Shown one piece after another: positions 4,536 to 47,595 of a DNA stretch of 64,000 nt. The translations under genes were made by a program, and so were the position numbers. Source of the DNA: Anaerolineae bacterium (GTDB taxonomy: Bacteria > Chloroflexota > Anaerolineae > S140-20); contig JALUTT010000170.1 of the NCBI GenBank assembly GCA_027021705.1, forward strand, positions 17,616-81,615. The letters run 5' to 3'. Under the pieces are notes generated by a model that saw only the letters and a program-made list of their open reading frames with translations, was not told where the DNA came from and made no database searches. Position 1 is the stretch's first letter; each line of letters opens with the position of its first letter.

Positions 4536-4574
4536 GGTTCCCTCCTGGGGTACGTGTTGCGTGGGACGTGTGGG

Positions 4575-5246
4575 TTACTCTTCCACGACGAAGTCGAAGA
4601 GCATCGTGCTGACTGTGACGATGATGACGTCGTAGACAACGAGCAGACGGAGCCAGTAGGCCACATCAGCGATAGGCAGGGCTTCCAGAAAGCCGCCAGT
4701 GGCCCGGACGGCGGCCATCAGCACGGGGACGGCGGCAGGCAGGAGCAGGATGGGCAACATCACCTCGCGGGCTCGGGTGTTGACGGCCATCGTGGCGAAG
4801 AGGGTGCCCACAGCAGCGTAGCCGGCTGTCCCTAAGAGCAGGGTCAGCAGCACGCCGGCCCGGAAGACGGGCAGGTTGAAGAGGACGGCGAAGACGGGCA
4901 GGACAACCGCTTCCACCAGGGTGATGAAGAAGAAGTTGCCGATGGCCTTGCCCAGGTAGATGGTGCTGCGGTCCATCGGGGCCAGCAACATCCCGTCGAA
5001 ACAGCGGTTCTGCTCTTCCTGGGCCATCGAGCGGCTGAGGCCCAGGCTCCCGGCGAAGGCCACGGTGACCCAGAGGACGCCGGGGGCCGTCTGTTGGGCC
5101 GTGGCTGCCCGCAGGTCCAGGGCGAAGCTGAAGATCAGCACCGTCAGCAAGGCGAAGACGAGCATCGAGCTGAGCATCTCTCGGGTGCGCAGCTCGGTGA
5201 TCACATCTTTGGTTAGGATGGCGAGGAGGCTGCGGAGGAAATTCAA
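4575..5246 (-). CDS. ccmB: Heme exporter permease CcmB
   Basis: KDVITELRT, PGVLWV, IYLGK, MLPILLLP; TTG at 5246 overlaps the upstream TGA (TTGA). Confidence 0.93.
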   Translation of the reverse strand: MNFLRSLLAILTKDVITELRTREMLSSMLVFALLTVLIFSFALDLRAATAQQTAPGVLWVTVAFAGSLGLSRSMAQEEQNRCFDGMLLAPMDRSTIYLGKAIGNFFFITLVEAVVLPVFAVLFNLPVFRAGVLLTLLLGTAGYAAVGTLFATMAVNTRAREVMLPILLLPAAVPVLMAAVRATGGFLEALPIADVAYWLRLLVVYDVIIVTVSTMLFDFVVEE

Positions 5247-6100
5247 AGACGCTCGCTCCAAGTTGTCTTTCGCCAGTGTGATGGTCCCAAATGCTCCACG
5301 AGACCCATGTCGCGAAGGATTTGAAGCTGTTGCCGGACCTTGGCCTGCACATTCCGATTGTTCGGGTAGTGTTGCCGGAAGACGGCTTCCCGGGCGTAGA
5401 GGTCCTGATTGGTGAACTCCCCGTCGGGCAGGTGGGTGTAAACCAACTTTAGCCAGCCGACAAGGTCATGGGCAAGGGGTGAGGGGCGTCGGAGATGCCG
5501 TACCTTCTCCCGAAACGCCCTGGTCAGGTCCCGGTCTGCTCGCCCGCCCTGCCGGGGACTGCGCCTCTTCCTCGTGCAAAGCGCTTCGTACAGCTCCAGG
5601 AACTCCTCATCGGGCTCGACGCGGTGGGGATCGAACTTGAGGCGGTTGTAGACCCCGTAGAGGTCGGAGATGATCTCCGTCTCCAGAGAGGCCTGGATGA
5701 CCATGTTGACTTCCACGTTGTCCTCCAACCCCCCTTGGGTCAAATTTGACGACCCCACGATGGCGACGACGTCTGCGTCGTTGCGCATCAGGTAGAGCTT
5801 CGGATGGTAAAGGGATGCGGTACCGGGATCGGTGTAGCAATACAGAGCCAATTGCGAAGCCCGGGACGTCTCGTACAGATGCCACAGTGCTTGGGGCTCG
5901 GTGACCGTCGCATCCAATCCGACGAGGAACTCTACGGCCCCTCCGGTCTGGAGCACCTTCTGGAGAGGAGGCCACACGCGATCCAGGCCCGATTGGGAGA
6001 GAAAGGCCACGGCGATCCTCACATCGCGGGAGCGTTCAAGAGCGGATTGCAGAACCGAGGCCATCGTCTGTTGAGCGTTGTCGGCGACGGTAATCTGCAT
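5243..6100 (-). CDS. PLD (HKD) family nuclease fused to DpnI-like winged-helix domain; candidate modification-dependent restriction endonuclease
   Basis: IAVAF, EFLVG, YHPKLY...IVGSSNLTQGGLEDNVE; C-terminal FTNQDLY...HYPNNRNVQAKVRQQLQILRDMGLVEHLG. Confidence 0.8.
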   Translation of the reverse strand: MQITVADNAQQTMASVLQSALERSRDVRIAVAFLSQSGLDRVWPPLQKVLQTGGAVEFLVGLDATVTEPQALWHLYETSRASQLALYCYTDPGTASLYHPKLYLMRNDADVVAIVGSSNLTQGGLEDNVEVNMVIQASLETEIISDLYGVYNRLKFDPHRVEPDEEFLELYEALCTRKRRSPRQGGRADRDLTRAFREKVRHLRRPSPLAHDLVGWLKLVYTHLPDGEFTNQDLYAREAVFRQHYPNNRNVQAKVRQQLQILRDMGLVEHLGPSHWRKTTWSERL

Positions 6101-6160
6101 CCTGGTGCCGCCTTTCTGGGAATTCCCCAAGCTGGATGACGGAGCTTTGCCGACGGGCGG

Positions 6161-6865
6161 TCACCCCGACACCACCCGCTCATACACACCGGGGAAAGCG
6201 TGCGGGTCAATCTCGCTCCGGGGGGCCTGGTAGACAACCTTGCCCCGGTTCAGGATGACGACCCGATGGCAGCGGTTCAGCGCCCGCTCGATGTTGTGGG
6301 TGGTGAGCAGGACAGTACGGCCGGCGGCGGCAACTTCCTGTAGGATCCCATCCAGGATGGCCGCTGCCCGCTGGTCTAGCCCTGTGTAGGGCTCGTCGAA
6401 GAAGACGAGGCGGGGTCGGTGCAGGACGGCCCGGGCGATGGCCAGCCGCTGTTGCATCCCCCGCGAGTAGGTGCGCACGGGGTCGTGCCGCCGCGCCGAC
6501 AGATCCACCATGGTCAGCATCTCGTCAATCCGCGCGTCCAGCTCCGAATTGTCCAGGCCGTAGAGCCGACCGTAGAAGCGCAGGTTCTCCTCGGCTGTCA
6601 GGTGGGGGTAGAGCAGGGTCTGGTGGGAGATGAGGCCGATCTGACGCCGGACGGCCGGCCCTGCCTTTTGCACATCGTAGCCGGCCACCTGCACCACCCC
6701 GGCCGTCGGTTTGCTCAGCGTGGCCAGGATGCGTAGCAGCGTCGTCTTGCCCGCTCCATTCGGCCCCAGGATGGAGACGAACTCCCCCGGCTCCACGTCC
6801 AGGTTCACACCCCGCAGCGCTGTGTGGACGCCAAAGGCCTTGACCAGTCCCCGCACGTGGATCAT
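6161..6865 (-). CDS. ccmA: Heme ABC exporter ATPase CcmA
   Basis: Walker A GPNGAGKT, YSRGMQQR, DEPYTGLD; ccm operon context. Confidence 0.93.
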   Translation of the reverse strand: MIHVRGLVKAFGVHTALRGVNLDVEPGEFVSILGPNGAGKTTLLRILATLSKPTAGVVQVAGYDVQKAGPAVRRQIGLISHQTLLYPHLTAEENLRFYGRLYGLDNSELDARIDEMLTMVDLSARRHDPVRTYSRGMQQRLAIARAVLHRPRLVFFDEPYTGLDQRAAAILDGILQEVAAAGRTVLLTTHNIERALNRCHRVVILNRGKVVYQAPRSEIDPHAFPGVYERVVSG

Positions 6866-8700
6866 CGTGCTTGCATCCGCTCGATCAGCTCCTCCACCAG
6901 CTCCGACCGCTCCCGACGGTACGTCGCTTCGTCCAGTTCGCCGGCCTCATAAGCGTCGTCTAGGTCGGCGATGGCCTCCAGCAGAGCCTGACGGTCGCTG
7001 GCGACGCGGACCCGGGCCAGCGCCTGGCGCGGCGACCATCCCTGCCAGATCAGGTAGGCAGCCACCACTCCCAGGGCCAGACCGATCAGCCCCAGTCCCA
7101 GGGCCTGGCGCTCGGTGGGGCCGGGTCGCCTGCTGGTCTCCCCCGCTGCCGTCGCCGTGGACGGTCGGGGCTTGCCTTTCATCTTCCACGAGACCTCCTG
7201 GCCCGGCGTGAGGGGACCTGTGCTGTAGTTGTAGACCACCTCCCCCTGCATCGGTACCGGCGTTGGCTCTCCCAATTGCTCGCTCTCAACAGTGATCCCC
7301 ACATCGGGTACCAACAGGTTGAGCGAGTTCACCGGATAGAGGAACCGACGGGTGATGACCAGCCCGTCCCGATAGGCTAGCGCATAGGAGAAGAGCAGTT
7401 CCGTTGTGCCCTCGCCAGGAAGCACGGGGGCCGTGTCTATGAACCCCTCGTCGGTCTCCGTGAAACGACCGGCCATCGTGCCCCGCTCGAAGCGCAGGTT
7501 GGTGGCTTCATCGGGCAGGGGGATCTGCAAGGAGCCGACATAGGTTCGGTCGCCTGCGTTGCTGACGATGTAGAGTTCGCCGATGCGCAGCCGGTCGGAG
7601 GCGGGGAAGTCGGCGAAGATGTGGACCCGATCGAAACGGATGGCGTCAGCCTGGTCGGTGGTCTCATACACGGTCAGGGTGACCTCGCCCTCGGGCTTGC
7701 TGACGGAGAGCTGGATAGCATCGCTGCCGTAGTTGACGCCTCGGTATTCCGTCGTGACCACGTAGGCAACTTGAGCTTCGGGGTCCAGGTCGGCGAAGCG
7801 GAAGGAACCATCGCTCTGGACGGTGGTCGAGAGGGTGCCGACCATCTTCACCTGCGGGCCGGCCTCGAAGGCGATGAGGGTGACGGTGATGCCCTGAGGC
7901 AGGACAGCCCCTGTCGTGCCGTTCACCACCTGTCCGGTGATGACGCCAGGACCGCCGGCGAAGGGGTCCTTGCCGGGCACGGCGAGGGCAGGCGGCGTGT
8001 AGTCGTAGCTGAAGGTGCGCAGGTAATCCACCACCTGCCAGCGGGCCTCCTCGTCGAGTTCGTCGGCAAAGGAGGGCATCCCTTTGGTGGGACGTCCCTG
8101 GGTCACGGTCTCGAAGAGCTCCTGTTGGCTCTTCTGGGCCATCATCGCCAGGTCGGTGAAGTCGGGCATTGGGCCGGGGGCTGCTGGCCCGCTCCCGGTG
8201 CCATCATCCCCGTGGCAGGCGGCACATCGGCCTTGGTAGATCCTCCGTCCTGCCTCAATCTGGTCCGAGGGCGTGCTCAACGTGTAGAGGTAGAAGACCA
8301 GGTCCCATCGCTCCTGCTCACTGAGGGGATTGCTGGAGGCTGGGCCAAAGGGGGGCATCGCCGTCCCCTGCCGGCCGTTGGTAATGGTCTCGAACCAACG
8401 GGCGGGTGTGGTGGCCCGAGCCAAGGCGGGATCGGTCAGGTCGGGCATCGGCAGCCCTACCGCCTGGGCCTGGGGACCATCCCCCTGGCCATTCTGACCA
8501 TGGCAGGGGAGGCAGCGTTGGGCAAAGATGCTCGCGGCTCGCTCGGGCGAAGGCTGGGAAGGGGGCCCCCCTTCCTGAGCGCGGGTCAGGGTCGGGAGTA
8601 GGGCAAGGGCAAAGGTGAAAGCAAGCCAGCCGGCGATCACCCTGCCGACCTGAAGCTTACCTTCTATCCAACGGGAACGGACTGACTTGTTCACGCTCAA
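6862..8700 (-). CDS. Membrane-anchored diheme c-type cytochrome with beta-rich middle region
   Basis: Signal peptide; CLPCH...MPPF and CAACH...MPSF class I domains; C-terminal TM then LEAIADLDDAYEAGELDEATYRRER. Confidence 0.85.
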   Translation of the reverse strand: MSVNKSVRSRWIEGKLQVGRVIAGWLAFTFALALLPTLTRAQEGGPPSQPSPERAASIFAQRCLPCHGQNGQGDGPQAQAVGLPMPDLTDPALARATTPARWFETITNGRQGTAMPPFGPASSNPLSEQERWDLVFYLYTLSTPSDQIEAGRRIYQGRCAACHGDDGTGSGPAAPGPMPDFTDLAMMAQKSQQELFETVTQGRPTKGMPSFADELDEEARWQVVDYLRTFSYDYTPPALAVPGKDPFAGGPGVITGQVVNGTTGAVLPQGITVTLIAFEAGPQVKMVGTLSTTVQSDGSFRFADLDPEAQVAYVVTTEYRGVNYGSDAIQLSVSKPEGEVTLTVYETTDQADAIRFDRVHIFADFPASDRLRIGELYIVSNAGDRTYVGSLQIPLPDEATNLRFERGTMAGRFTETDEGFIDTAPVLPGEGTTELLFSYALAYRDGLVITRRFLYPVNSLNLLVPDVGITVESEQLGEPTPVPMQGEVVYNYSTGPLTPGQEVSWKMKGKPRPSTATAAGETSRRPGPTERQALGLGLIGLALGVVAAYLIWQGWSPRQALARVRVASDRQALLEAIADLDDAYEAGELDEATYRRERSELVEELIERMQAR

Positions 8701-8878
8701 AGGCTATTCCCTTTCCTTGATGGCAAGCACGAATCCGATTTGCTTCTGGGGTCCCCTCAATGCTCAGGCTGGTGGCAGAAATGGGATGCCCTTGGTGCGA
8801 GACCTGCCAAGCCGGCATTGAGGTCAACGGAGGTTCGCTCCAAGAGGGGCTGCCTTTTCCGAATGGCCTCCTCCGGGC

Positions 8879-9460
8879 CTACTGGGCAGGCGCACCACAG
8901 CGGGCGCAGAACCGGTCATCGGAATCCAGAGGGGAGCCACACTGGGAGCAGACCGGCAGCGGGGTGCCACACCGGGAGCAGAAACGGTCTCCCGGATCCC
9001 CTCGATGCCCACAGGATGGGCAGGCAGGTCCCACCGCTGTTGACGTTTCGACGGTCGGCTCCCGGCCCCCGGAGGATGCCACAGCGGCGGGCTCCGCGAC
9101 CGGCTGGCCGCGCTGGCGTCGCAGTGCGGCGACCTGCCGCTCGATCTCGGCCTCCAGCGCTGCCCGCCCATCTCCACCGGTCAGTTCATCAATGCGTTTC
9201 AGAATCTCCACCCCCTGGGCAACGTACTGATCCCGCAGGGGTTTGTAGTCCTCTTCGGCGATCTTGCCGGTCTGGTAGTCGAAATCCAGTTCCCGGATGG
9301 CTGTGTAGATCGCCTCACGCTGCTCGTACAGTTCCTTCAATGGGTTCTCGTCGTCGGTGAGGGGAGCGGGTTCATCGGAGGACTGGAAGAGGGGGCGGAG
9401 AATCCAGGCGACGGTCACCAGCAGCAAGCCGGCTCCAAAAAGCAGGGCTCCAAGGTTCAT
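8879..9460 (-). CDS. CcmI-like N-terminus plus double zinc-ribbon protein
   Basis: TM, IRELDFDYQTGKIAEEDY, four CxxC pairs (CPSC, CSRC, CSQC, CARC); ATG 9460 preferred because the upstream extension is repeat-derived. Confidence 0.8.
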   Translation of the reverse strand: MNLGALLFGAGLLLVTVAWILRPLFQSSDEPAPLTDDENPLKELYEQREAIYTAIRELDFDYQTGKIAEEDYKPLRDQYVAQGVEILKRIDELTGGDGRAALEAEIERQVAALRRQRGQPVAEPAAVASSGGREPTVETSTAVGPACPSCGHRGDPGDRFCSRCGTPLPVCSQCGSPLDSDDRFCARCGAPAQ

Positions 9461-9464
9461 CGGT

Positions 9465-9563
9465 GCGTATTCCGTATTCCGTATTTCGTGTTTCGCATTT
9501 CGTGCTTCGTATGCCGTCCCGCCCTTCACGCTTCCTGGGCTCGTTTGGCGTTTCACGTCTCAC
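9465..9563. repeat. Degenerate heptamer tract (CGTATTC/CGTGTTT-like; TTCACGC-like)
   Basis: cgtattccgtattccgtatttcgtgtttcgcatttcgtgcttcgtat. Confidence 0.75.
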
Positions 9564-9586
9564 AGGCCGCGTGCTGCGGGGGGCGC

Positions 9587-10150
9587 TCACTGGGAGAGCA
9601 GGTCTCGGATGGCCTGATCCAGCTCGCCGGGCCTGAAGGGACCCACTTTGGTCAAGACGATGCGTCCCTCTCGATCTATGATGAAGGTCTCGGGAACGCC
9701 GGTGATGCGGTAGGCGTCAGAGATGCGGCTGCGCAGGTCTGGCCCGTTGGGGTAGGTGATGTTGAACTCCTCCAAGTAGGCCCGGGCCTTGCTCTCCGTG
9801 TCCACGTAGTCCACACCCAGGACGACGACCCCCTGGTCCCGGTACTTGCGCCACACCATCTCCAGCTCCTCGGCCTCTCGTCGGCATTCGACACACCAGG
9901 AGGCCCAGAAGTTGACGACGACGATCCGTCCGCGCAGTTGGGAGAGGGTGACCTCGCCGCTGGTGAACTCGTTCTCGTAGCCGCTGAAAATGGGCAGCGT
10001 GAAGTCGGGGGCCAGGCCCGACTCCGGCCGGGTCTGGGACTGGCGGACGAGCCCCCAGCCCAGCAGGCCCAGCAGGGCGAAGGTAACGACCCAGACCAGC
10101 AGACGACCTACGCGCAGACCGGTTTTTGGCTGCACCGCTTCTTCTGCCAT
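9587..10150 (-). CDS. TlpA/CcmG-like thioredoxin
   Basis: TM, APDFTL, VNFWASWCVEC, GVPETF; adjacent to ccmH. Confidence 0.9.
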   Translation of the reverse strand: MAEEAVQPKTGLRVGRLLVWVVTFALLGLLGWGLVRQSQTRPESGLAPDFTLPIFSGYENEFTSGEVTLSQLRGRIVVVNFWASWCVECRREAEELEMVWRKYRDQGVVVLGVDYVDTESKARAYLEEFNITYPNGPDLRSRISDAYRITGVPETFIIDREGRIVLTKVGPFRPGELDQAIRDLLSQ

Positions 10151-10154
10151 CGCC

Positions 10155-10652
10155 TCACTCCCACTCACGCAGCTCCCGCTCCAGGCGGGCGACGTAATCT
10201 TCGGGTAGGTCGCTGCTGGCCCGTACCGGTGAAGGTTCAACGGGGATGGTCGCGGTAGCCACCGTCCGTCTCCCCATCCAGCGTCGGAAGAGTTGGATCA
10301 TAATGCCGATGCCCGCCAGGGTCCCTACCACAGGCAGGATCCAGACCCAGAGGGCGAAACCTGCCTGGCGGGGGAGGGCCCGCACCCGGTCTCCATACCG
10401 CTCGGTAAAGTAGTTGATCACCTCTTGATCACTGTAACCAGCAGCCAGCAGTTCACCGATCTGCTCTCGCCAGTCAGCACAGGCTTGGGTCTCGCACACG
10501 TCCAGGGGGGTGTTCTCGCAGACGGGACAGTAGAGTTGCTTGGCCACACGGTTGATGTCGTCCTTGGTGACCTCGCCGCCTTGGGCATAGACGACGCCAA
10601 CCAAGAGCAGGCTGATGAGCGCAAGCCCTATCCATAGCCACCATCTCTTCAT
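10155..10652 (-). CDS. ccmH: Cytochrome c biogenesis protein CcmH
   Basis: LYCPVCEN, YFTERYGDRV, WVWILP. Confidence 0.92.
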   Translation of the reverse strand: MKRWWLWIGLALISLLLVGVVYAQGGEVTKDDINRVAKQLYCPVCENTPLDVCETQACADWREQIGELLAAGYSDQEVINYFTERYGDRVRALPRQAGFALWVWILPVVGTLAGIGIMIQLFRRWMGRRTVATATIPVEPSPVRASSDLPEDYVARLERELREWE

Positions 10653-10699
10653 TGGGGTTACCTCCTCCAGAGGTCGGAGCCTCCGGTGATGCGCCCCTT

Positions 10700-12694
10700 C
10701 TAAACCTGTTGGGGTGCGATGGTCAGGCGCGGCATCACCATCCGTCGCTCCGCCTCAAAATCGGGCCAGCCGGCCACCAAAGTCCCTACCACGAAGATCA
10801 GCCCTCCTAGCCACAGCCAGTTCACCAACGGGTTGATGTAGACGCGGAAGGTGGCTGTCGCTCCACCACTTTCCCAACCTGTCAGGAGCACGTAGACATC
10901 TTCGGCCATCGTGCTGCGCAAGGCCGGGATCGTCATCGTCTGCTGGGTGTTCTGATAGAACTCCCGCTTGGGGTGGACGGTCTTGAGCAGTTGGTCACCC
11001 TGGTAGATCTCCACCGTGGCTTCGGTGACTATCAAGTCTCCGGGGCCTGGGTAGGTACGTAGCGTCCGATAGACGGTTCGGAAACCGCCGATCTCCAGCG
11101 ATTCCCCAGGCCGCAAGGTCCCCTCGGTATCCTGCTGGAAGAACTCGGTGCCGATGATGCCCAGGGCCATGCAGACGACACCCAGGTGGACGATGTAGCC
11201 GCCGTAGCGCCGCCGATTCCGCCCGGCCAGCCGCCAAAAGGCCACCAGCCAAGGCTCCCCTCGGGCACGGCGCCGGGCGATCACGCCTCGGACGTACTCC
11301 CACAGGGTAGTGACGCCCACGAAGGTCACGAGGAGGAAGCCCAGCAGTGCCCCCCAGGAGTGCACTCCCCGCAGGAAGAGGCCGATGACAACGACCACGG
11401 CGATCAGGAAGGGCCACCATAAGCTGCGTCCCAGCCGCTGGGCGGCCGTCTTCCGCCAGGCCATCAGCGGGGCGATGCCCATCAGGGCCAACAGCAGGGC
11501 GAACTGGGGTGCAGTCACTCGGTCGAACCATGGGGGACCGACGGTGATCTTCTCGCCCGTCACCAACTCAGAAACCATCGGCGAGATGGTGCCGATGAAG
11601 ACCGAGAAGGTCAGGGTTATGAAGAGCATATTGTTGAGCAAAAAGGCCGCTTCCCGCGAGAGCAGGGCGTCCAGCCGGTTCTCCGACTTCAGATCGTCCA
11701 ACCGCCGCAGCAACGTGGCCACCGAGGCCACAGCCGTCACGGCGATGAAGGAGAAGAAGAGGGGGCCAACGGCTGACTGGGCAAAGGAGTGCACGGACGA
11801 GATAACGCCGCTACGGGTGATGAAGGTGCCGAAGATCACCAATCCGTAGGTGAGAATGATCAACACCATATTCCAGACCTTCAGCATGCCCCGCTTCTCC
11901 TGAATCATCACCGAGTGCAAGAAGGCGGTGCCGGTCAGCCAGGGCATGAAGGCCGCGTTCTCCACCGGGTCCCAGGCCCAATAACCTCCCCAACCCAGCA
12001 CGTCGTAGGCCCATCGCCCGCCCAGCAGCAACCCCAAACTGAGGAAGAGCCAGGCTGCCAGCGTCCAGCGGCGGGTCACCCGGATCCAGTGGGGATCCGT
12101 GCGGCGGGTGACCAGGGCGGCCATAGCGAAGGCATAGGGGATGACGAACCCCACATAGCCTAGATAGAGCGTCGGCGGGTGAGCGACCATTCCCGGATGG
12201 CGCAGCAGCGGGTTCAGCCCTTGACCATCGGGAGGGATGAAGGAGAGCTTTTCGAAGGGGTTGGCCACAAAGGTGGTCAGGCCGACGAAGAAGACCAGGG
12301 TGCCTGCGGTCACGAAGATGACGTGGGGCAGCAGCTCCCGGTCCTCATCCCACCGCCGAAGCATCACGATGAAGGTGAAGGAAGCCATCAGGAAGGACCA
12401 GAAGAGCAGCGATCCGTTCTGCCCTCCCCACAAGGCGGTCACCTTCAGGAAGAGGGGCATATCCCGGCTGGAAGTGGTGGCGACGTATTTGAGCTGGAAG
12501 TCTCCCACCACCAGCGCGTAGATGAGAGTGAGGGAAGAGAGGCCGAGGAGGGGGGCCAAGGTCATCGTAGCGTGCCGGGCGCTGTTGACCCACCGCTCCT
12601 CTCCCTTGAAGAAGCCGTACAGGGAAGCGATGGTGGCGTAGACGGCCCCCACCAGAGCCGTCACCATCGCGAGGTAGCCTACGTCAGGAATCAT
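10700..12694 (-). CDS. ccmF: Heme lyase CcmF
   Basis: LWGGQNGSLLFW, GLNPLLRHP, HPP, WGGYWAWDPVEN, TRSG...SVHSF. Confidence 0.97.
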   Translation of the reverse strand: MIPDVGYLAMVTALVGAVYATIASLYGFFKGEERWVNSARHATMTLAPLLGLSSLTLIYALVVGDFQLKYVATTSSRDMPLFLKVTALWGGQNGSLLFWSFLMASFTFIVMLRRWDEDRELLPHVIFVTAGTLVFFVGLTTFVANPFEKLSFIPPDGQGLNPLLRHPGMVAHPPTLYLGYVGFVIPYAFAMAALVTRRTDPHWIRVTRRWTLAAWLFLSLGLLLGGRWAYDVLGWGGYWAWDPVENAAFMPWLTGTAFLHSVMIQEKRGMLKVWNMVLIILTYGLVIFGTFITRSGVISSVHSFAQSAVGPLFFSFIAVTAVASVATLLRRLDDLKSENRLDALLSREAAFLLNNMLFITLTFSVFIGTISPMVSELVTGEKITVGPPWFDRVTAPQFALLLALMGIAPLMAWRKTAAQRLGRSLWWPFLIAVVVVIGLFLRGVHSWGALLGFLLVTFVGVTTLWEYVRGVIARRRARGEPWLVAFWRLAGRNRRRYGGYIVHLGVVCMALGIIGTEFFQQDTEGTLRPGESLEIGGFRTVYRTLRTYPGPGDLIVTEATVEIYQGDQLLKTVHPKREFYQNTQQTMTIPALRSTMAEDVYVLLTGWESGGATATFRVYINPLVNWLWLGGLIFVVGTLVAGWPDFEAERRMVMPRLTIAPQQV

Positions 12695-12739
12695 TGGATC
12701 CTTCTCCTTAAGATGTTGTCCCCCACAGCCTTCCCCGTC

Positions 12740-13264
12740 CTACCCTTTACTCTGGGAAGGTATATCTTCTTCGTAACGGGTCGGGCACTTCAGGAGCAGT
12801 TCGTCGGCGTAGAAGATCCCGTCTTCGCCGAGCTTGCCGGTGACGATCGCCTGGGCCTCGTGTTGCATCAAGTCCGGCTTGGGACCGTGATAGCGGACGG
12901 TGAGCCGAGGGACCTGAGGATCGCTGACTGCCTGGCGGAGGACAACGGCCAACCCACCGGCGGCTTCGATCTCCTTGTTGGAACCCGGGACGTGCGCGAT
13001 GGTGAACTCCAGATCCAGGTTCTGGGCATCGTACACGATGGTGTCCCCGATGACCGCACCGGAGACGCGCACCTGGCGGCCCTGAAGCTCATCACGCCGG
13101 GCCAGGAGTTCTTCGACGGTGAGGAAGTACTCGGCGTGGGCCCCGAAGCTGCTGACGATGAGGTAGGCCACCGCTGCTAGGATGATCAGACCACCCACGT
13201 AGAATTTGGCCCGGGATCTGCCGGCGGTCTGGAGTTCAGTCTTGGGCACAGTCGCTTCCTGCAT
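12740..13264 (-). CDS. ccmE: Heme chaperone CcmE (CxxxY variant)
   Basis: N-terminal TM, VRVSG, YHGPKPD, ELLLKCPTRY. Confidence 0.92.
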   Translation of the reverse strand: MQEATVPKTELQTAGRSRAKFYVGGLIILAAVAYLIVSSFGAHAEYFLTVEELLARRDELQGRQVRVSGAVIGDTIVYDAQNLDLEFTIAHVPGSNKEIEAAGGLAVVLRQAVSDPQVPRLTVRYHGPKPDLMQHEAQAIVTGKLGEDGIFYADELLLKCPTRYEEDIPSQSKG

Positions 13265-13384: not shown

Positions 13385-14389
13385 CTATGACACCCGCTGG
13401 TCCAGGGGCTTGGCCCGGGTGCCACAACGGGGGCAGAAACGGTCTTCCACGGCGAGAGGCGTGCCGCACTGGTGGCAGAAGCCTCCACCTTGGTCCGAGA
13501 CGGAGGTCCTCGGAAGGGCCGGCGCTTTGCGCCGACGTCCTCGCGAGCTCCGTCGTGGCCTCGGAGGTGGGGATGGTGCTGCTGTTGCCATTGTGCGCTG
13601 GGTCCACACCCACCAGATGCCCCCGACGACGATGAGGATCACGGCGACCCCGATCAGGGCTGCGCCCAGGATGGATCGGACGGAGATGCGCTGAGAGGAG
13701 GGGGTGGAAGAGGATGGCCCGGCCACCGGCTCACTCTGCACAGGCGGCGGCATCGCTGAGATGGTGAGGCGATCGTCGGGCTTTTGGTAGGCCACGGTGA
13801 CCTGGAGGGTCTCATCGGCCTGCAGGCTCCCAACCTGCCACCGATGGATGGTGACTCCTTCAGGCCCCGGCGCGGCTTCGGGAAAGGGAGGGGTCAGCGT
13901 GACATTCGTCGCGGAGAGGGGCTCCTTGAAGACGAGGACCATCTCCTGGATCGGGTAGTCACCCGGCCAGGTGAAGGTGTAGCGGCGCTCGTCGCCCTGG
14001 CGTTCCAGGGGTGCATAGTACTCGACTTGGAAGGCGGGCTGATCCATCGTAGCGCGGATGAGGAGCCAATCCCCTACCGGTTCGGTTTCGTAAGGTGCGT
14101 TGAGGAGCTCTCCGCGCTCGTTGGCCACGGCCACCGCTGTCGGCCCCCCCGCATCCGCGGGGATCCGCAGTTCCACTGTAATGGGCAGCGTCACCTCGTC
14201 CGCCAGTCGGCCCCGGTAGATGACCAGCATCGAGGACCGATCGTATTCCGGCCACAGCTCAACGATCAGCGAAACCAGGGAGACCGATGGCAACTGCGCC
14301 CACGCTAGGGCGGCTTGGGGGATCAGCATACCCCCGATGAGCAGGAGCGTCAAGATCACGGTCTGTCGTCGCATCACGGACCCGTTCAA
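13385..14389 (-). CDS. Secreted/membrane protein with C-terminal zinc ribbon
   Basis: Signal peptide, LWPEYD domain, TM, FCHQCG...FCPRCG. Confidence 0.8.
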   Translation of the reverse strand: MNGSVMRRQTVILTLLLIGGMLIPQAALAWAQLPSVSLVSLIVELWPEYDRSSMLVIYRGRLADEVTLPITVELRIPADAGGPTAVAVANERGELLNAPYETEPVGDWLLIRATMDQPAFQVEYYAPLERQGDERRYTFTWPGDYPIQEMVLVFKEPLSATNVTLTPPFPEAAPGPEGVTIHRWQVGSLQADETLQVTVAYQKPDDRLTISAMPPPVQSEPVAGPSSSTPSSQRISVRSILGAALIGVAVILIVVGGIWWVWTQRTMATAAPSPPPRPRRSSRGRRRKAPALPRTSVSDQGGGFCHQCGTPLAVEDRFCPRCGTRAKPLDQRVS

Positions 14390-38763: not shown

Positions 38764-38928
38764 TGGGGTGGAAACCCACCAATCTTCCCTTGTCTCCCCT
38801 GTAGATACGATGGATATGGGGGTAGACCCCCACTGGATAATGGGTAATTCTACCCACAAAAAGTGACATCCATCACAATGCAGTGGTGACATCCCTCACT
38901 ATCCCTTGGTCCGGCTATCCTCTATACT
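38764..38928 (+). promoter_or_regulatory. Operator-rich promoter of the multiheme cluster
   Basis: 16-bp palindromes TGGGGGTAGACCCCCA (38817) and TGGGTAATTCTACCCA (38841); two GTGA-N6-TCAC boxes (38863, 38886); -10 TATACT (38923). Confidence 0.65.
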
Positions 38929-38980: not shown

Positions 38981-40225
38981 ATGAGACGTCAGGGGCTGTT
39001 CATCCTTGGGGCGTTGTTGTTGATGGCGCTCCTGGTCGTAGCCTGTGCCGGCCCTCAGGGACCCGAGGGACCGCCCGGTCCGGCAGGACCGCCGGGGCCG
39101 GAAGGGCCTCAGGGTCCTCCAGGCCCCCAAGGCCCTCCAGGGCCTCAAGGACCGCCAGGGCCACAGGGACCACCAGGAGAGGCCGCCGCTGCCGAATACG
39201 TCGGGAGCGACGTTTGCGCTTCGTGCCATGAGGAGATTTATGATGTCTTTATAAAGTCGGGCCACGCCTGGAAGCTGAATCCGGTCGTGGACGGCAAGCC
39301 CCCGGAGTACCCCTTCACCGAGGTCCCAGAGCCGCCGGAAGGCTACACCTGGGATGACATCGCTTACGTCATCGGGGGCTACAACTGGAAAGCCCGGTTT
39401 ATTGACAAAAACGGTTACATCATCACCGGCCCCGACGAGAATGCCACGACCCAGTACAACTTCGCCAATCCCGAGGTGGGCAAGGAGGCCGGCTGGGTGG
39501 CCTACCATCCCGGCCAGGAGAAGCCCTACAATTGCGGGCCCTGCCACACCACCGGTTACAAGCCGGAGGGCCACCAGGACGGCCTGGAAGGGATCGTCGG
39601 CACCTGGGCGGAGCCGGGCATCAAGTGCGAGCGGTGCCATGGCCCAGGCAGCCTGCACGTTGCCAACCCCTATACCGTGCGCATGGTCGTGGACCGCGAT
39701 TCCGAGCAGTGTGGTGAATGCCATCTGCGGGGCTCGCCCGAAGCGGTCAACGCCAAAGGTGGCTTCATCCAGCACCACGAGCAATACGAGGAGCTCTTCC
39801 AGAGCAAGCATATCACCCTGCGGTGCGTGATCTGCCACGACCCCCACGCCGGAGTGGTGCAACTGCGCAAAGCGGGCGAGCAGACCACACGCACCCAGTG
39901 TGAGAACTGTCACTTCCAGGAGGCCAAGTACCAGAACTCCGAGGTACACAAGGCCGTGGGGGTGACCTGTATTGACTGCCATATGCCGCGCATCGTCAAG
40001 AGTGCCTGGGGAGACGCCGAGAAGTTCACGGGGGACATCCGCACCCATATGATGGCCATTGACCCGGATCAGATCGAGCAGTTCACCGAAGATGGCAAGA
40101 CGGCGCTGTCGCAGATCGGGCTGAACTTCGCCTGCCGCCATTGCCACGTCGAAGGGGGGAAGGCGACCCCGAAGACCGACGATGAACTGCGCGAGAGGGC
40201 AACAGGCTATCACGCCCGGCCTTAG
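38981..40225 (+). CDS. Octaheme c-type cytochrome lipoprotein with collagen-like stalk
   Basis: Lipobox VVAC, 14 G-P-X triplets, 8 CxxCH (CASCH, CGPCH, CERCH, CGECH, CVICH, CENCH, CIDCH, CRHCH). Confidence 0.9.
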
Positions 40226-40339
40226 ACCGACCGATCCGGATCGTTGCCAAGAGCACGTCTGCGGGCCGGGGACTGCCTCCCGGCCCGCATTCCCATCTGG
40301 GCTCGCCGTCCAGCAGCGCAGGATAGTGGGTGGATAACA

Positions 40340-41452
40340 ATGAAGCGGTTTGCCGTGCTCCCAGGTCTGGTGGGGCTGGTTCTGGTGAGCCTCGCCCTCG
40401 TAGCCGCCCCCACAGCGGCTCAGCCGGCCCGGCCCACCCCGTCGGTCCCGAATGTGGGTGATGAGACCTGCCTGGCCTGTCACGACACACCGGGGTTGCA
40501 GATCACGCTCCCCTCGGGTGAGCCCCTCTACCTGACCGTGGACCGGGTGATCTACAAGACCTCGACCCACGGGCGGCTGGGCTATGCCTGCGTCCAGTGC
40601 CACACGGATATTGGCGAGTTCCCTCATCCGCCCCTACAGGTGACCAGCCGGCGGGAATTCACGTTGAAGCTGTACCGGTCCTGTGCTCGGTGCCACGAGG
40701 ACAAGTACGAGGCCACCCTGGACAGCGTTCACCAGGCTGCCCTGGCTGCAGGCCACCCGGAGGCTGCCGTCTGCACCGACTGTCACGGGGCCCACAACAT
40801 CGGGCCACCGGACAAACCGCGCAGCCACATCTCCCGAACCTGCCGCCGTTGCCATTCCCAGATCTATGACCTGTATGAGAAGAGCGTCCACGGCGCGGCG
40901 CTGATTGACGAAGGGAACCCTGATGTCCCCTCTTGCACCGACTGTCACGGGGTGCACAGCGTCGAAGGGCCCTCCACCAGCCCGTTTCGCCTCTTCTCAC
41001 CACAGATCTGTGCCCGCTGCCACGCCGATCCGAAGCTGATGGGGCGCTATGGCATCAGTACCGACGTCTTCGACACCTACGTCGCCGACTTCCACGGCAC
41101 CACCGTCATCCTCTTCGAGGCCATTGCCCCGGATCAGGAGACCAACAAGCCGGTCTGCATTGACTGTCATGGCGTGCACGACATCCAGACGACGGACGAT
41201 CCGGAGAGCCGGGTCATTAAGGAAAACCTGCTTGCCACCTGCCGGAAGTGCCATCCTGATGCCACGGCCAACTTCCCTACCGCCTGGCTCAGCCACTACC
41301 GGCCCAGTCCCGAGCACGCACCGCTGGTCTACTTCGTCAACCTGTTCTACGAGATCCTGATCCCCACGGTGATCGGGGCAATGGTGATCTTCAACGCTAC
41401 CGACATCTACCGACGGGTTGTCTGCCGCCTTCGGGAGCGCCGCCATGGGTGA
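40340..41452 (+). CDS. Nonaheme c-type cytochrome with C-terminal TM (CbcL heme-c domain-like)
   Basis: Signal peptide; 9 CxxCH; SVHG-type repeats; C-terminal TM helix. Confidence 0.88.
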   Translation: MKRFAVLPGLVGLVLVSLALVAAPTAAQPARPTPSVPNVGDETCLACHDTPGLQITLPSGEPLYLTVDRVIYKTSTHGRLGYACVQCHTDIGEFPHPPLQVTSRREFTLKLYRSCARCHEDKYEATLDSVHQAALAAGHPEAAVCTDCHGAHNIGPPDKPRSHISRTCRRCHSQIYDLYEKSVHGAALIDEGNPDVPSCTDCHGVHSVEGPSTSPFRLFSPQICARCHADPKLMGRYGISTDVFDTYVADFHGTTVILFEAIAPDQETNKPVCIDCHGVHDIQTTDDPESRVIKENLLATCRKCHPDATANFPTAWLSHYRPSPEHAPLVYFVNLFYEILIPTVIGAMVIFNATDIYRRVVCRLRERRHG

Positions 41453-42599
41453 GGTTCGTAAGTACCTGCGTTTCCCCCTCTCCTACCGCCTCGAGCACGG
41501 GCTGCTTATGCTCAGCTTCACGGTCCTGGCCATCACCGGCCTGGTCCAGAAGTACGCCGGCACCGGCCTTGCCGAAGGGGTCGTGGCCTTGATGGGGGGC
41601 ATCGAGCGCGTGCGCATCACGCATCGGGTCGCCGCCATCGTCCTGATGATCGAGACGGTCTACCACGTGGGGGCTGTGGGCTATCGCCTCTTCGTACACC
41701 GCGCCCGCCCCACAATCCTCCTGACGTTGGACGATGGGCGCATCGCGCTCCAAATGCTGCTGTACAACCTAGGCCTGCGGAAGGAACGCCCCCTTCAAGG
41801 TCGCTACACAGTAGAAGAGAAGATCGAGTACTGGGCCGTGGTCTGGGGAACGCTGATTATGGCGGTCACAGGGTTTATGATGTGGAACCCCATCGCCACC
41901 ACACGCCTCTTGCCTGGGGAGTTCGTCCCGGCGGCCAAGGCGGCCCACGGCAACGAAGCCCTTCTGGCCGTGCTGGCCATCCTCGTCTGGCACGTCTACC
42001 ACGTGCACCTCCGCCACTTCAACAAGAGCATCTTCACCGGCTACCTCACCGAAGAGGAGATGCGGGAAGAGCATCCCCTGGAGCTGACCACGGTGGAGAC
42101 GAGGGCCGCTGTGGAGAGCCCCAGGGTACTGGCCCGGAGGCGCTGGGCCTTCTTCTCCATCTACGGCACGCTGGCAGCCGCCATGTTGGTGGGCATCTAC
42201 CTCTTCGTCACTTTCGAGGAGACGGCCATCACGACGGTACCGCCGCCGGAACAGGTGGTGATCTACGCACCGCTGACGCCGACGCCTCTGCCGACGCCGT
42301 TGCCTACCCCCACGCCGCTGCCTCAAGTGGCCGCCTCCTGGAAGGGGGGGGTGGCCATGCTGCTCCAGGAGCGGTGTGGCAACTGCCACAACAGCACGGC
42401 CAGGTTGGGTGGCCTGGACCTCAGCAGCTACGAAGGAGTCCTGGTGGGCGGTGCCAGCGGCCCGGTCATCGTTCCGGGTGATCCCGCAGCCAGCCTGCTG
42501 GTGGTCCGGCAGGCGGCGGGGGACCATCCTGGCCAGCTCAGTGGTGAAGAGCTGGCCCTGATCCGCCAGTGGATTCAGGCGGGTGCACCAGAACAGTGA
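41445..42599 (+). CDS. Cytochrome b (FdnI/HydC-like) fused to monoheme planctomycete cytochrome C domain
   Basis: RLEH, THRVAA, EKIEYWAVVWGT, AHGNEALLA, WHVYHVH; PT linker; CGNCH...IVPGDP...WIQAGA. Confidence 0.87.
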   Translation: MGEVRKYLRFPLSYRLEHGLLMLSFTVLAITGLVQKYAGTGLAEGVVALMGGIERVRITHRVAAIVLMIETVYHVGAVGYRLFVHRARPTILLTLDDGRIALQMLLYNLGLRKERPLQGRYTVEEKIEYWAVVWGTLIMAVTGFMMWNPIATTRLLPGEFVPAAKAAHGNEALLAVLAILVWHVYHVHLRHFNKSIFTGYLTEEEMREEHPLELTTVETRAAVESPRVLARRRWAFFSIYGTLAAAMLVGIYLFVTFEETAITTVPPPEQVVIYAPLTPTPLPTPLPTPTPLPQVAASWKGGVAMLLQERCGNCHNSTARLGGLDLSSYEGVLVGGASGPVIVPGDPAASLLVVRQAAGDHPGQLSGEELALIRQWIQAGAPEQ

Positions 42600-42635
42600 G
42601 GGCGATGGGGAGTCGAGGACGAGAGGAGAAGGACG

Positions 42636-44333
42636 ATGGGTCGTATCCGGCAGGTGTTACGCAGCCTCTTCTTCCCCCCGCCAGGGACCCGGCTATGGCG
42701 GTGGCTATTGCCCTACGCCATCCTGGGCGTGATGACCCTGGTGGTGCTGATCCTCGGCGCGTATAGCTGGGAGTACACCAACTCTCCGGAGTTCTGTGGC
42801 ACAGCCTGCCACACCATGCCTCCCGAGTACACCGCCTACCTGGTCTCACCCCACGCCCGGGTGAAGTGCGTCGAGTGCCACATCGGACGCAGCTTCATCG
42901 CCACCCAGATTTCACGCAAGGCTGGGGACATTGAGCACATCGTCTCCTTGGCTTTCCGGCGCTACGAGTTCCCCATCTACGTCAGGACGATGCGGCCGGC
43001 GCGGGAGAGCTGCGAACGCTGTCACTACCCGGAGAAGTTCTCCGACGACAGCCTGCGCGAGATCAAGCGCTTCCGCGACGACCGGGACAACACGCCCTAC
43101 AGCATCTACCTCACGCTGAAGACGGGCGGTGGCAGCAAGCGCCAAGGACTGGGAAGGGGCATCCACTGGCACATCGAGAACCCCGTCTACTACCTGGCCC
43201 TGGACCCCGATGAGCAGGTGATCCCCTACGTGCGGGTGGTGGGCGACGATGGGTCCGTCACCGAGTATGTGGATGTCGAGGCCGACATCAACCCGGCGGA
43301 GATAGACCCGGCCGACCTGAAGGAGATGGACTGCATCACTTGTCACAACCGCATCACCCACCTGATCCGCCCGCCTGACGATATTGTAGACCAACTGATG
43401 GCGCGCCGAGTGATCTCGCCGGAGATCCCGGAGATCCACCGCAAGGCCGTCGAGGCGCTCAGCACCCGTTACGACTCCATCGAGATAGCGATGAACGCCA
43501 TTGCTGGCCTGATGGGCTACTATCAGACCTACTACCCGGATTTCTACGCGGCCAACCGGGATCAGATTGAGGCGGCCATTGCGGCCCTGCAGGAGGCCTA
43601 CCGACAGAGCGTCTTCCCGGAGCAGAAGGCCGATTGGACCACCCACGTCAACGAGATTGGTCACAAGTACTCACCCGGCTGTTTCCGTTGCCACGACGGC
43701 AAGCACTTGAACGCGCAACAAGAGGCCATCCGGCTGGAGTGCAACCTCTGTCACTCGATCCCCGTGGTGGTCGGCCCCAACGACTTCGTCGCCAGGATCG
43801 AGATCAGTCGGGGGCCGGAGCCTAAGTCCCACCTGCACGCCAACTGGATTGGCCTGCACCGCGACATCTTCGACGACACCTGCGCCAACTGCCATACCAC
43901 CGAGGACCCCGGAGGGACCAGCAACGTCTCCTTCTGCTCCAACAGCGCCTGTCACGGTACGGTGTGGGAGTACGCTGGCCTGGATGCGCCGGAACTGCGC
44001 AAGATCCTGGCCCAGCAGATCCCCCAGATTGCCCCGACCCCGACCCCCATCCCCGAAGGCATCGCCCTTACCTACGCCGATACCATCGGGCCGCTGCTCC
44101 GGGACCGCTGTGGCACCTGCCACGGGGAGAAGGGGATCCAGGGGCTCAACCTGACCACCTACGAAGGGCTGCTGAAGGGTGGGGCCGGCGGGCCAGCCAT
44201 CGTGCCCGGCGACCCGGACAAGAGCTTGCTCGTTCAGGAGCAGCGGGGGGAGCAACCCCACTTCGGTCAGCTGACCGACCAAGAGCTGGAATTGGTCATC
44301 CAATGGATCGAGGCTGGTGCACCGAAGGACTAA
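42636..44333 (+). CDS. NapC/NirT-domain multiheme cytochrome (ImcH-like) with C-terminal monoheme domain
   Basis: N-terminal TM, TNSPEFCGTACHTM, SPHARVKCVECH, GIHWH; 7 CxxCH plus CX3CH and CX4CH. Confidence 0.87.
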   Translation: MGRIRQVLRSLFFPPPGTRLWRWLLPYAILGVMTLVVLILGAYSWEYTNSPEFCGTACHTMPPEYTAYLVSPHARVKCVECHIGRSFIATQISRKAGDIEHIVSLAFRRYEFPIYVRTMRPARESCERCHYPEKFSDDSLREIKRFRDDRDNTPYSIYLTLKTGGGSKRQGLGRGIHWHIENPVYYLALDPDEQVIPYVRVVGDDGSVTEYVDVEADINPAEIDPADLKEMDCITCHNRITHLIRPPDDIVDQLMARRVISPEIPEIHRKAVEALSTRYDSIEIAMNAIAGLMGYYQTYYPDFYAANRDQIEAAIAALQEAYRQSVFPEQKADWTTHVNEIGHKYSPGCFRCHDGKHLNAQQEAIRLECNLCHSIPVVVGPNDFVARIEISRGPEPKSHLHANWIGLHRDIFDDTCANCHTTEDPGGTSNVSFCSNSACHGTVWEYAGLDAPELRKILAQQIPQIAPTPTPIPEGIALTYADTIGPLLRDRCGTCHGEKGIQGLNLTTYEGLLKGGAGGPAIVPGDPDKSLLVQEQRGEQPHFGQLTDQELELVIQWIEAGAPKD

Positions 44334-44362: not shown

Positions 44363-44397
44363 GGACCGGGCACCGGAGGGTGCCCGGTCCCTCTTTT
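44363..44397 (+). terminator. Rho-independent terminator
   Basis: ggaccgggcacc-ggag-ggtgcccggtcc-ctctttt. Confidence 0.8.
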
Positions 44398-46698: not shown

Positions 46699-47595
46699 AT
46701 GGGCAACAACGGACGCGGAAGAGGCTCAATGGAACTGCGGGGGTTGATGCCCACGCCAGAGGAGCGTTGGGCCTTGATGCGCAGTTACTTGGAGCTGGGG
46801 GAGAGCGACCTGGAGGCTATGGCTGCAACGGTGGAGCCTCTCTTTCGACGCGGGCCCGACCTGGTGAAGGAGAACTATGACTACCTGGCCCGCTTCCCGG
46901 AGACGGCGGCGGTGCTGGGCTGGGAGGACGGCATTGACGAAGAGCACCTGGAGGAACGACGTCGCTTCTTCACCATCTGGCTGGCTCGGTTGCTGGGGCT
47001 GGACCTGAGCGACGATATGGCCCGTTACATGTTCTACGCCGGTAAGGTCCACGCCGGCCACGGCCCCCGCCGCATCCACGTCCCCGACATCTTCGTCACC
47101 GGGGCCGTCAGCCGGGTGCAGGCCGACTTCGCCGCCACCATCCAGGCCCACATCTCCGACGCCGGTCTGATCGCCCGAGCCCTGGCCGGCTGGAACAAAG
47201 TGCTGACCATGCACCTGGACATGATGCTGATGGGCTACCAAGTGGCGCGGGCGGTGGATGAAGGCCCCAACCCGGTGCGGGTTACCCTCTTCGGACGGTT
47301 GCGCTCCCTCGTCGGCCGCCAGGAGATGGTCATCCGCACCGGCCCGAACGCCCGGGTGGCCGACGTGCTACGCAAGTTCTTCAACTACTACCCGGAGGCC
47401 CGCCACGAGGCCCTAGAGGCCCATCCCGAGCCCCTGGAGGAAGGAGAGTCGCTCTGGCTGGAGCTGACGGAAGTCTACGTGCCCCGCAAGTCGTGGCGGG
47501 TGCTGCGCAACGGGCGCGACCTGAACTACAACGGCGGTTTTGAGGCCCCCGTCGAGGCGGGAGATGAAGTCGCCCTCTTCCCACCAGGACGCTGA
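46699..47595 (+). CDS. Protoglobin/globin-sensor domain fused to MoaD/ThiS-like beta-grasp domain
   Basis: NYDYLARFPETA, AGKVHAGHG...IHVP; C-terminal VRVTLFG...LRNGRD...GDEVALFPPGR. Confidence 0.8.
   Translation: MGNNGRGRGSMELRGLMPTPEERWALMRSYLELGESDLEAMAATVEPLFRRGPDLVKENYDYLARFPETAAVLGWEDGIDEEHLEERRRFFTIWLARLLGLDLSDDMARYMFYAGKVHAGHGPRRIHVPDIFVTGAVSRVQADFAATIQAHISDAGLIARALAGWNKVLTMHLDMMLMGYQVARAVDEGPNPVRVTLFGRLRSLVGRQEMVIRTGPNARVADVLRKFFNYYPEARHEALEAHPEPLEEGESLWLELTEVYVPRKSWRVLRNGRDLNYNGGFEAPVEAGDEVALFPPGR

Follow-up and report, generated by a model that had tools for sequence, protein, structure and literature searches.

The window analysed here, a 64,000-nucleotide (nt) stretch of contig JALUTT010000170.1 from an Anaerolineae bacterium, contains a predicted operon of four multihaem cytochrome genes, designated g1 to g4, whose products resemble the quinol-oxidising cytochromes CbcL (g2+g3) and ImcH (g4) of Geobacter and the octahaem reductases related to OcwA (g1). 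Members of the Anaerolineae, most often regarded as fermenters, are plentiful in sediments, digesters and aquifers. A scan for open reading frames (ORFs) and haem motifs found four ORFs, all on the plus strand, with 27 haem c motifs (8+9+1+9), two of them non-canonical, in agreement with the gene and motif counts of the original prediction. The true starts are at 38981 (g1), 40340 (g2), 41445 (g3), and 42636 (g4); there is an 8-nt overlap between g2 and g3, while gaps of 114 nt (g1-g2) and 36 nt (g3-g4) separate the other neighbours. No molybdo-enzyme or hydrogenase gene is present in the operon. The genes and their accessory domains are the following:

38981-40225, plus strand: g1, 414 amino acids, 8 CxxCH motifs
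39050-39184, plus strand: collagen-like stalk of g1 (residues 24-68), 15 uninterrupted Gly-X-Y triplets, PF01391 over its cut-off
40340-41452, plus strand: g2, 370 amino acids, 9 CxxCH motifs
41445-42599, plus strand: g3, 384 amino acids, 1 CxxCH motif
42330-42596, plus strand: mono-haem tail of g3, a PSCyt1 (PF07635) domain whose invariant His361 stands at the FoxE Met position
42636-44333, plus strand: g4, 565 amino acids, 7 CxxCH motifs plus CX3CH and CX4CH
44067-44330, plus strand: PSCyt1 mono-haem tail of g4, with His542 conserved in 72/74 relatives

The product of g2 has a signal peptide, nine CxxCH motifs, nine further histidines that are invariant in 53/53 relatives, and a C-terminal membrane helix without histidine. 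The product of g3 is an FdnI-like dihaem cytochrome b (PF01292) with a fifth helix, followed by a Pro/Thr linker and a C-terminal mono-haem domain. Its histidines 18, 60, 74, 168, and 183 are invariant in 50/50 relatives, and four of them (18/60/168/183) align in a profile match (E 1.4e-15) to FdnI His18/57/155/169, which we take to be haem ligands. In 98 of the best 120 long g2 homologues the g3 domain follows within the same protein, joined in the loop after the first helix. Read together, the two products give nine haems and then six helices, as in CbcL of Geobacter (GSU0274), with helix offsets of 31, 85, 131, 197, 240, and 308 vs 28, 94, 142, 220, 254, and 332 (taken from published positions, the fourth helix being placed by eye). 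Judged by these sequence features, g2+g3 is a bc cytochrome of the CbcL type that is divided behind the first helix, as the original prediction had proposed in speaking of a split CbcL architecture. The g2 haems are probably nine bis-His haems, matching the c domain of CbcL, which is described as entirely bis-His (PMC9129911).

The original prediction had also held that a best match to formate dehydrogenase would speak against CbcL. The best match of g3 is indeed FdnI, but this test is not diagnostic, because the b domain of CbcL is itself FdnI/HydC-like (PMC6295460). CbcL, MtoC, and MtrH resemble g2+g3 in that nine c haems of the bis-His type precede six helices that include an FdnI-like dihaem b domain, and the fused homologues have the same order. 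Each of the three is one polypeptide, whereas here there are two genes, no histidine in the first helix, and a mono-haem tail added at the C-terminus. CbcBA (GSU0593/0594) of Geobacter sulfurreducens is likewise a bc system of two genes (bioRxiv 2021.04.15.440034; PMC13591261), in which the multihaem subunit is anchored by a helix at its C-terminus. However, the seven-haem CbcA provides the fourth histidine for the b haems, and CbcB is hydrogenase-like with four helices (bioRxiv 2021.04.15.440034), whereas g2 has nine haems and a helix without histidine, and g3 has five helices, all four ligands, and profile scores of 43 bits for FdnI vs 19 bits for HydC.

A frameshift artefact as the cause of the split is excluded by two further split copies in the same genome (on contigs C18 and C37 in our numbering), making three in all, and by 53 separate g2/g3 pairs in 40 related loci; the sole fused g2-g3 ORF among the loci (L032) spans a gap of N. 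In a tree of the b domain (FastTree on 215 residues, midpoint-rooted, with 75 of 148 rows used and none of them from Geobacter), proteins bearing the first-helix histidine stand apart (support 0.95, with two His-less rows among them), and the split and fused His-less forms interleave. The interleaving argues against a single fission event and implies that fission or fusion occurred more than once. It also limits the proposal that the cluster is an electron-transfer module adapted to a cell without an outer membrane: the protein families are as proposed, but the split is neither special to this locus nor cleanly tied to such cells. A fusion of g1 to g2, suggested by an 822-codon frame in genome G056 and by homologues with 15-17 haems, was rejected, since the frame has only 8 motifs and the fused partner is a domain of the OTR family (tetrathionate-reductase-type octahaems). 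The predicted model of g2 has no clear solved fold, with no Foldseek match at E<=0.001 and a best Z of 8.7 with an rmsd (root-mean-square deviation) near 9; g2 itself has a weak match to PDB 28pb, entitled 'Cytochrome c', which may be CbcA.

Two other arrangements of split pairs were observed. The third pair of the genome (L102, G000:C37:17790-22649) has as its neighbours one multihaem gene and one gene for an octahaem of the OTR family. Thirteen loci (L029, L034, L039, L041, L045, L046, L049, L064, L065, L067, L080, L085, and L092) have tandem split CbcL-type pairs before g4, the first of which lacks the fifth helix and the tail and forms its own clade.

The product of g4 belongs to the NapC/NirT/NrfH superfamily. 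It has one N-terminal helix and an NrfH-like start with a CxxxCHxM motif, then seven haems that keep the ImcH register, a CX4CH haem as the eighth, a linker, and the mono-haem tail. Its haem intervals (24, 48, 107, 116, 20, 47) follow those of Geobacter ImcH, GSU3259 (24, 49, 106, 117, 20, 38), the first five to within 1 residue, and are close over the same five to those of Anaerolinea thermophila ANT_RS10945 (23, 49, 107, 116, 20). Both non-canonical motifs are conserved, CX3CH in 74/74 aligned relatives and the histidine of CX4CH in 72/74. With the landmark positions of ImcH placed on g4 by offset from the first cysteine, three of five are identical: His137, Lys173, and Tyr188 (bioRxiv 2023.05.03.539133) fall on g4 His59, Lys95, and Tyr110, which are conserved in 74/74, 74/74, and 73/74 relatives, respectively. 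On haem spacing and landmark positions g4 is ImcH-type, and the original prediction of an ImcH-like gene stands. In common with GSU3259 and ANT_RS10945, g4 has the CX3CH haem 1 directly after the helix, the Lys173 and Tyr188 positions, and the NrfH-like N-terminus. It differs from Geobacter ImcH in having one N-terminal helix rather than three, His for Gln179 and Asn for Glu127, the extra CX4CH haem, the tethered mono-haem tail, and an operon shared with CbcL-type genes. One-helix ImcH homologues are already in print, namely A. thermophila ANT_RS10945 (Table S3) and a member of Intrasporangium (PMC6295460), and the accessible part of that survey gives one ImcH homologue and no CbcL homologue for Chloroflexi. 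Relatives of g4 are encoded in at least 591 genome stretches (among at least 601 stretches listed), and 78 of the best 80 loci are titled Chloroflexota, Anaerolineae or subgroups. A 64% identical g4 with tail is also found on a 2.6-kb contig titled Gammaproteobacteria (L096), which is probably misbinned.

The mono-haem tails of g3 and g4 are 50% identical to each other, and the linkers before them consist of Pro and Thr to 53 and 29%, respectively. Their solved relative is FoxE, an Fe(II) oxidase, which has Met where the tails have His (kept in 50/50 g3 and 72/74 g4 relatives). Both tails are predicted to be bis-His, and the replacement of the FoxE Met would point to a lower potential. A tail is present in only 1 of the 120 long g2 homologues. 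Close to g4, 45-48 of 80 related loci encode a Rieske/cytochrome b complex whose multihaem subunit bears this domain at its end; in 35/35 full-length cases the domain there has Met-Pro. Three quinol-oxidising complexes share one tethered output domain, which is the most distinctive feature found. In Geobacter, the soluble cytochrome PpcA takes electrons from both ImcH and CbcL (PMC13591261), and by analogy the tails may be a substitute for PpcA.

The product of g1 is a lipoprotein (lipobox Cys22) in which the collagen-like stalk is followed by an octahaem domain, the whole being about 140 residues shorter than the OcwA chain. Among 110 g1 homologues with an N-terminus of at least 30 residues, 56 have at least five triplets, and a lipobox is found in 54/56 of these vs 6/54 of the others; stalk and lipid anchor travel together. 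A collagen triple helix rises by 0.86 nm per triplet, and the g1 stalk as a triple helix would be about 13 nm long. The predicted model of the haem domain (pLDDT 85.6) matches OcwA 6i5b (Z 15.9, rmsd 3.3 over 281 residues), MccA (Z 14.9) and OmhA (Z 14.8), the next row being at 6.2, with Foldseek in agreement. OcwA is also the best sequence match of g1 (E 2.4e-21), and the fold is predicted to be of the OcwA/MccA/OmhA type.

Outside the haem motifs, g1 has eight histidines, His265-His266 among them, that 113-114 of 114 homologues retain, and His323 is conserved in 102. Because His265-His266 and Lys137 are invariant, g1 likely has seven six-coordinate haems and one open haem, the ligands being assigned from conservation alone. 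Its 17 cysteines comprise 16 in the eight canonical motifs and that of the lipobox, and a sequence check found no CxxCK motif in g1 or g4, unlike NrfA/ONR. MccA binds copper by two cysteines and has a long-spaced eighth haem motif. With OcwA (6I5B, Thermincola potens), OmhA (6QVM, Carboxydothermus ferrireducens), and MccA (4RKM, Wolinella succinogenes), g1 shares the predicted fold and a His-His motif between haems 4 and 5, which in OcwA lies over the open haem 2 (PMC6703420); OcwA and OmhA are surface proteins of monoderms. In contrast to this set, g1 has a lipid anchor and a collagen-like stalk and no spare cysteine for the MccA copper. OcwA has nine haems with two open, whereas g1 has eight with one likely open site; OcwA and OmhA, with nine or eleven haems, have a three-helix bundle, whereas the g1 model is without long helices at its C-terminus, the longest helix in it being 8 residues.

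The collagen-like stalk is reused on different cytochromes: a hexahaem lipoprotein family has one after the lipobox (L029:13812-14882 and 11 other loci). Seven proteins of about 720 amino acids with 15-16 haems (P0167, P0168, P0172, P0174, P0178, P0182, and P0229) are 47-54% identical to the g1 domain and are probably tandem duplications; three of these 15-16-haem proteins are named from Zixibacteria or the FCB group.

In 60 sampled relatives, which include kin, so that the counts are not independent, g4 was found in 18 (E<1e-80), g3 in 20, and both in 16. Full-length g1 was found in five of the 60, all of which also have g3 and g4, four of them on one contig. Of 56 loci in which at least 5 kb upstream of g4 is available, 37 have g2+g3 ahead of it, 9 have the full set of four genes, 4 have g1 without g2/g3, and 14 have neither. 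The core is g3 and g4, and g1 is accessory. The best 80 loci contain a kinase (HisKA_3) in 48 cases, a LuxR regulator in 44, a decahaem lipoprotein in 30, and an NrfD-family gene in 23. Overall, g1-g4 appears to be a condensed part of a more extensive respiratory island in Anaerolineae, one that parallels the Cbc set of Geobacter.

The operator-rich promoter and the terminator of the original prediction were both recovered as sequence features:

38817-38832 and 38841-38856: two TGGG-N8-CCCA palindromes; related boxes lie 5' of some g1 orthologues
38862-38900: two GTGA-N6-TCAC palindromes, 23 bp apart (starts 38863 and 38886)
38923-38928, plus strand: TATACT, candidate -10 element without a consensus -35
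44363-44390, plus strand: terminator-like hairpin of 12 pairs (10 G-C) with a T-run, candidate intrinsic terminator

The TGGG-N8-CCCA pair is a candidate for operators of a response regulator of the LuxR/NarL family. The GTGA-N6-TCAC pair is labelled as candidate CRP/FNR-family boxes after what we take to be the consensus of that family. The second GTGA-N6-TCAC palindrome is centred about 31 bp 5' of the TATACT hexamer, a sigma-70 scan called no promoter 5' of g1, TATACT included, and the g1 promoter appears to be activator-dependent. Both palindrome pairs occurred together in 0/1000 shuffles, a post hoc count with the patterns taken from the same promoter; the strict form of the CRP/FNR-like box has 8 copies in the 5.19-Mb genome, one of them at the g1 promoter. 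Upstream of g1 orthologues (12 regions, one dropped for N, 11 used), GGGTA-N4-TACCC was found in 2/11 regions (shuffle mean 0.08, maximum 2) and TGTGA-N6-TCACA in 3/11 (shuffle mean 0.1, maximum 2), which lends the g1-promoter palindromes modest support. Four tRNA genes lie 3' of the hairpin. Another strict CRP/FNR-like box is at C37:25370, 5' of the gene preceding the C37 cluster. A NarQ/NarX-like kinase with two CxxCH motifs (L101:370-1992, G000:C18:6369-7994) is encoded 5' of the second ImcH/split-CbcL cluster of the genome; its relatives occur in 48/80 loci, with two CxxCH motifs in 16/52 ORFs of the kinase cluster. This haem-motif kinase is a candidate redox sensor for the palindromes 5' of g1.

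A probable monoderm host had been proposed, and in agreement with this no match to Omp85, LpxC or MtrB was found in the 94.9% complete genome, the controls for Omp85 and LpxC being positive. We consider the chance about even that g1-g4 is a regulated route from quinol to the cell surface that serves acceptors outside the cell, for instance Fe(III), humics or partner cells. The quinol-oxidising core, i.e., the g4 and g2+g3 steps, is probable, and the extracellular acceptor is the weak link. In this scheme, g4 would oxidise quinol at haem 1 on the outer face (Lys95 corresponding to ImcH Lys173), with protons released outside, as reported for ImcH (bioRxiv 2023.05.03.539133), and would be the higher-yield branch. 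The g3 subunit would oxidise quinol at the inner face via its FdnI-like haem pair and pass electrons to the nine bis-His haems of g2, making g2+g3 the lower-yield, lower-potential branch. In Geobacter, ImcH serves acceptors above about -0.1 V and CbcL those below, with lower yield (bioRxiv 2021.04.15.440034, 2022.08.31.506072). The bis-His tails of g3 and g4 on their flexible linkers would be tethered stand-ins for soluble PpcA, which could not be retained in a cell without an outer membrane. Finally, g1 would be the terminal reductase, with an open haem like haem 2 of OcwA; it is predicted to form a trimer, which its stalk would raise as far as about 13 nm above the membrane.

There are precedents for such a route in monoderms. 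The related Ardenticatena maritima exchanges electrons with electrodes (PMC5808234), and for Thermincola a multihaem quinol-to-surface chain without an outer membrane, ImdcA-PdcA-CwcA-OcwA, has been proposed (PMC7911101). The Thermincola pathway uses a soluble decahaem carrier and a wall cytochrome, whereas here two Geobacter-type quinol oxidases with tethered tails are encoded in one operon. A broader version of the same idea is that Anaerolineae rebuilt the potential-switching hub of Geobacter for one membrane, with the same tethered bis-His mono-haem arm swinging at the end of both quinol oxidases in place of soluble PpcA, a Met-ligated form of this arm on the neighbouring Rieske/cytochrome b complex in relatives, and trimeric multihaem lipoproteins on collagen-like stalks taking the electrons across the wall; we regard this as tentative and rather unlikely to hold in full.

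Several results weigh against the quinol-to-surface route. Some concern the core: the likeness of g4 and g2+g3 to GSU3259 and GSU0274 was judged from published positions; the haem spacing of g2 fits CbcL only loosely, less closely than that of g4 fits ImcH; two of the five ImcH landmarks differ in g4 (Gln179 to His101, in 73/74 relatives, and Glu127 to Asn49, in 74/74); and the first-helix histidine described for Geobacter CbcL (bioRxiv 2021.04.15.440034) is absent from g2 and its relatives, being found in 0/17 close vs 76/81 distant fused homologues. The quinone pool is assumed, and a profile search of the genome found no menB, menD or futalosine-family PF02621 gene over cut-off; six UbiA-family genes are present alongside several quinone-linked complexes, and the quinone may be scavenged, made by another route, or made by ring-pathway genes that are unassembled. 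Other results concern the acceptor: g1 is missing from 13/18 g4-bearing relatives, and its predicted fold places it in a clade that holds both surface iron reductases (OcwA, OmhA) and soluble MccA.

The acceptor is also where the main rival departs. The same quinol-oxidising core may feed g1 as a reductase of a soluble substrate at the outer membrane face, NrfHA- or MccA-like, for respiration or detoxification and without solids, the candidates being nitrite, NO, hydroxylamine, sulfite, tetrathionate, and polysulfide; this is possible, though on balance somewhat unlikely. The predicted fold of g1 matches the soluble sulfite reductase MccA as well as it does OcwA; the invariant His-His and Lys stand near the likely open haem; and all proteins of the OcwA/MccA superfamily are reported to reduce some nitrite or NO in vitro (bioRxiv 2022.02.24.481543). 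OcwA itself reduces nitrite and hydroxylamine, but nitrite only poorly (kcat 1 per min), and does not reduce sulfite (PMC6703420), so that the closest sequence match of g1 counts on both sides. The MccA likeness is incomplete, as g1 lacks spare cysteines for copper, the long eighth motif, and CxxCK. Genomic context favours a soluble substrate in several ways: g4 is NrfH-like with its CxxxCHxM motif, g2-family proteins are fused to OTR-family octahaems in 9/120 long homologues and the C37 paralogue of g2 adjoins an OTR-family octahaem gene (all of these matches being under the TIGR04315 cut-off), g1 stands beside g4 without g2/g3 in 4/56 loci, 54/110 close g1 homologues are stalk-less and mostly without a lipobox, so that secreted forms exist, and no NrfA was found over cut-off in the genome, so that its role could be vacant. 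On the other hand, a soluble substrate should need neither a long stalk nor two quinol oxidases.

Alternatively, the module may work inward, in the manner proposed for MtoC, and reduce quinone with electrons drawn from Fe(II), reduced humics, minerals or partner cells. Fe(II) oxidisers have homologues of CbcL, MtoC, and MtrH that no feature sets apart (PMC6295460), A. maritima accepts current from a cathode (PMC5808234), and the solved relative of the tails is FoxE. We nevertheless hold this direction to be improbable, given that in the accessible part of PMC6295460 ImcH homologues are reported only with quinol oxidation, and that His in the tails where FoxE has Met would point to a lower potential. 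It is highly improbable that g3 serves as cytochrome b anchor for a formate dehydrogenase or a hydrogenase encoded elsewhere, with the cluster delivering electrons from that enzyme. The best solved and NCBIfam matches of g3 are FdnI, its homologues are annotated 'formate dehydrogenase gamma subunit', and 8 molybdopterin-family genes are present in the genome, all outside g1-g4. However, the FdnI score is well short of the TIGR01583 cut-off (115.85 bits), the CbcL b domain is FdnI-like as well, and the b domain is fused to a nonahaem domain in most long homologues (the 98/120 given above). In addition, no gene for a catalytic or Fe-S subunit adjoins the cluster, and among 100 related loci a molybdo-enzyme gene is present in only 3 and a NiFe large-subunit motif in none.

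Each part of g1-g4 is of a known kind, and the combination is a variant of a known system. No description of the operon, the His-less split subfamily, the tails or the stalk was found in the literature searched, which covered few subscription papers. A split CbcL gene would be expected to escape searches that require haems and helices in one protein. If electrons are exported, the genes would provide markers for extracellular respiration in Anaerolineae and a simple model of how soluble carriers are replaced in a cell without a periplasm, and if the broader hub idea is true, there would be many surface-respiring Anaerolineae, with the core in about a quarter of the sampled genomes. Should g1 reduce a soluble N or S oxide, it would add to the OcwA/MccA clade a new and compact protein whose source of electrons is known. 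The natural variants, i.e., the absence of the first-helix histidine and His for Gln at ImcH haem 1, offer material for testing the potential gating of CbcL and ImcH; the gating residues described for CbcL are Val205 and Phe525 (bioRxiv 2022.08.31.506072).

Outside the operon, the window contains a cluster of cytochrome c maturation genes:

3834-13264, minus strand: System I ccm genes ccmE, ccmF, ccmH, a ccmG-like thioredoxin gene, a ccmA-like ABC ATPase gene, ccmB, and ccmC

The cluster lies 25.7 kb upstream of g1-g4, which agrees with the predicted distance of about 26 kb, and likely matures the g1-g4 cytochromes. A ccmE gene is found within 8 kb of the g4 orthologue in 19/80 loci, and ccmF in 18/80. 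Between ccmA and ccmB, a gene at 5243-6130 (minus strand) encodes a PLD-like nuclease with a DpnI-type winged helix (PF13091, PF17726) and is possibly an inserted restriction gene. The ccm operon also includes, at 6862-9556 and 13385-14389 (minus strand), genes for a 612-amino-acid dihaem cytochrome c and two zinc-ribbon proteins, and genes like these recur beside ccm in related loci. On the other side, 2.4 kb downstream of the g1-g4 cluster (46699-47595, plus strand), a protoglobin domain is fused to a ThiS/MoaD-like domain ending in Gly-Arg.

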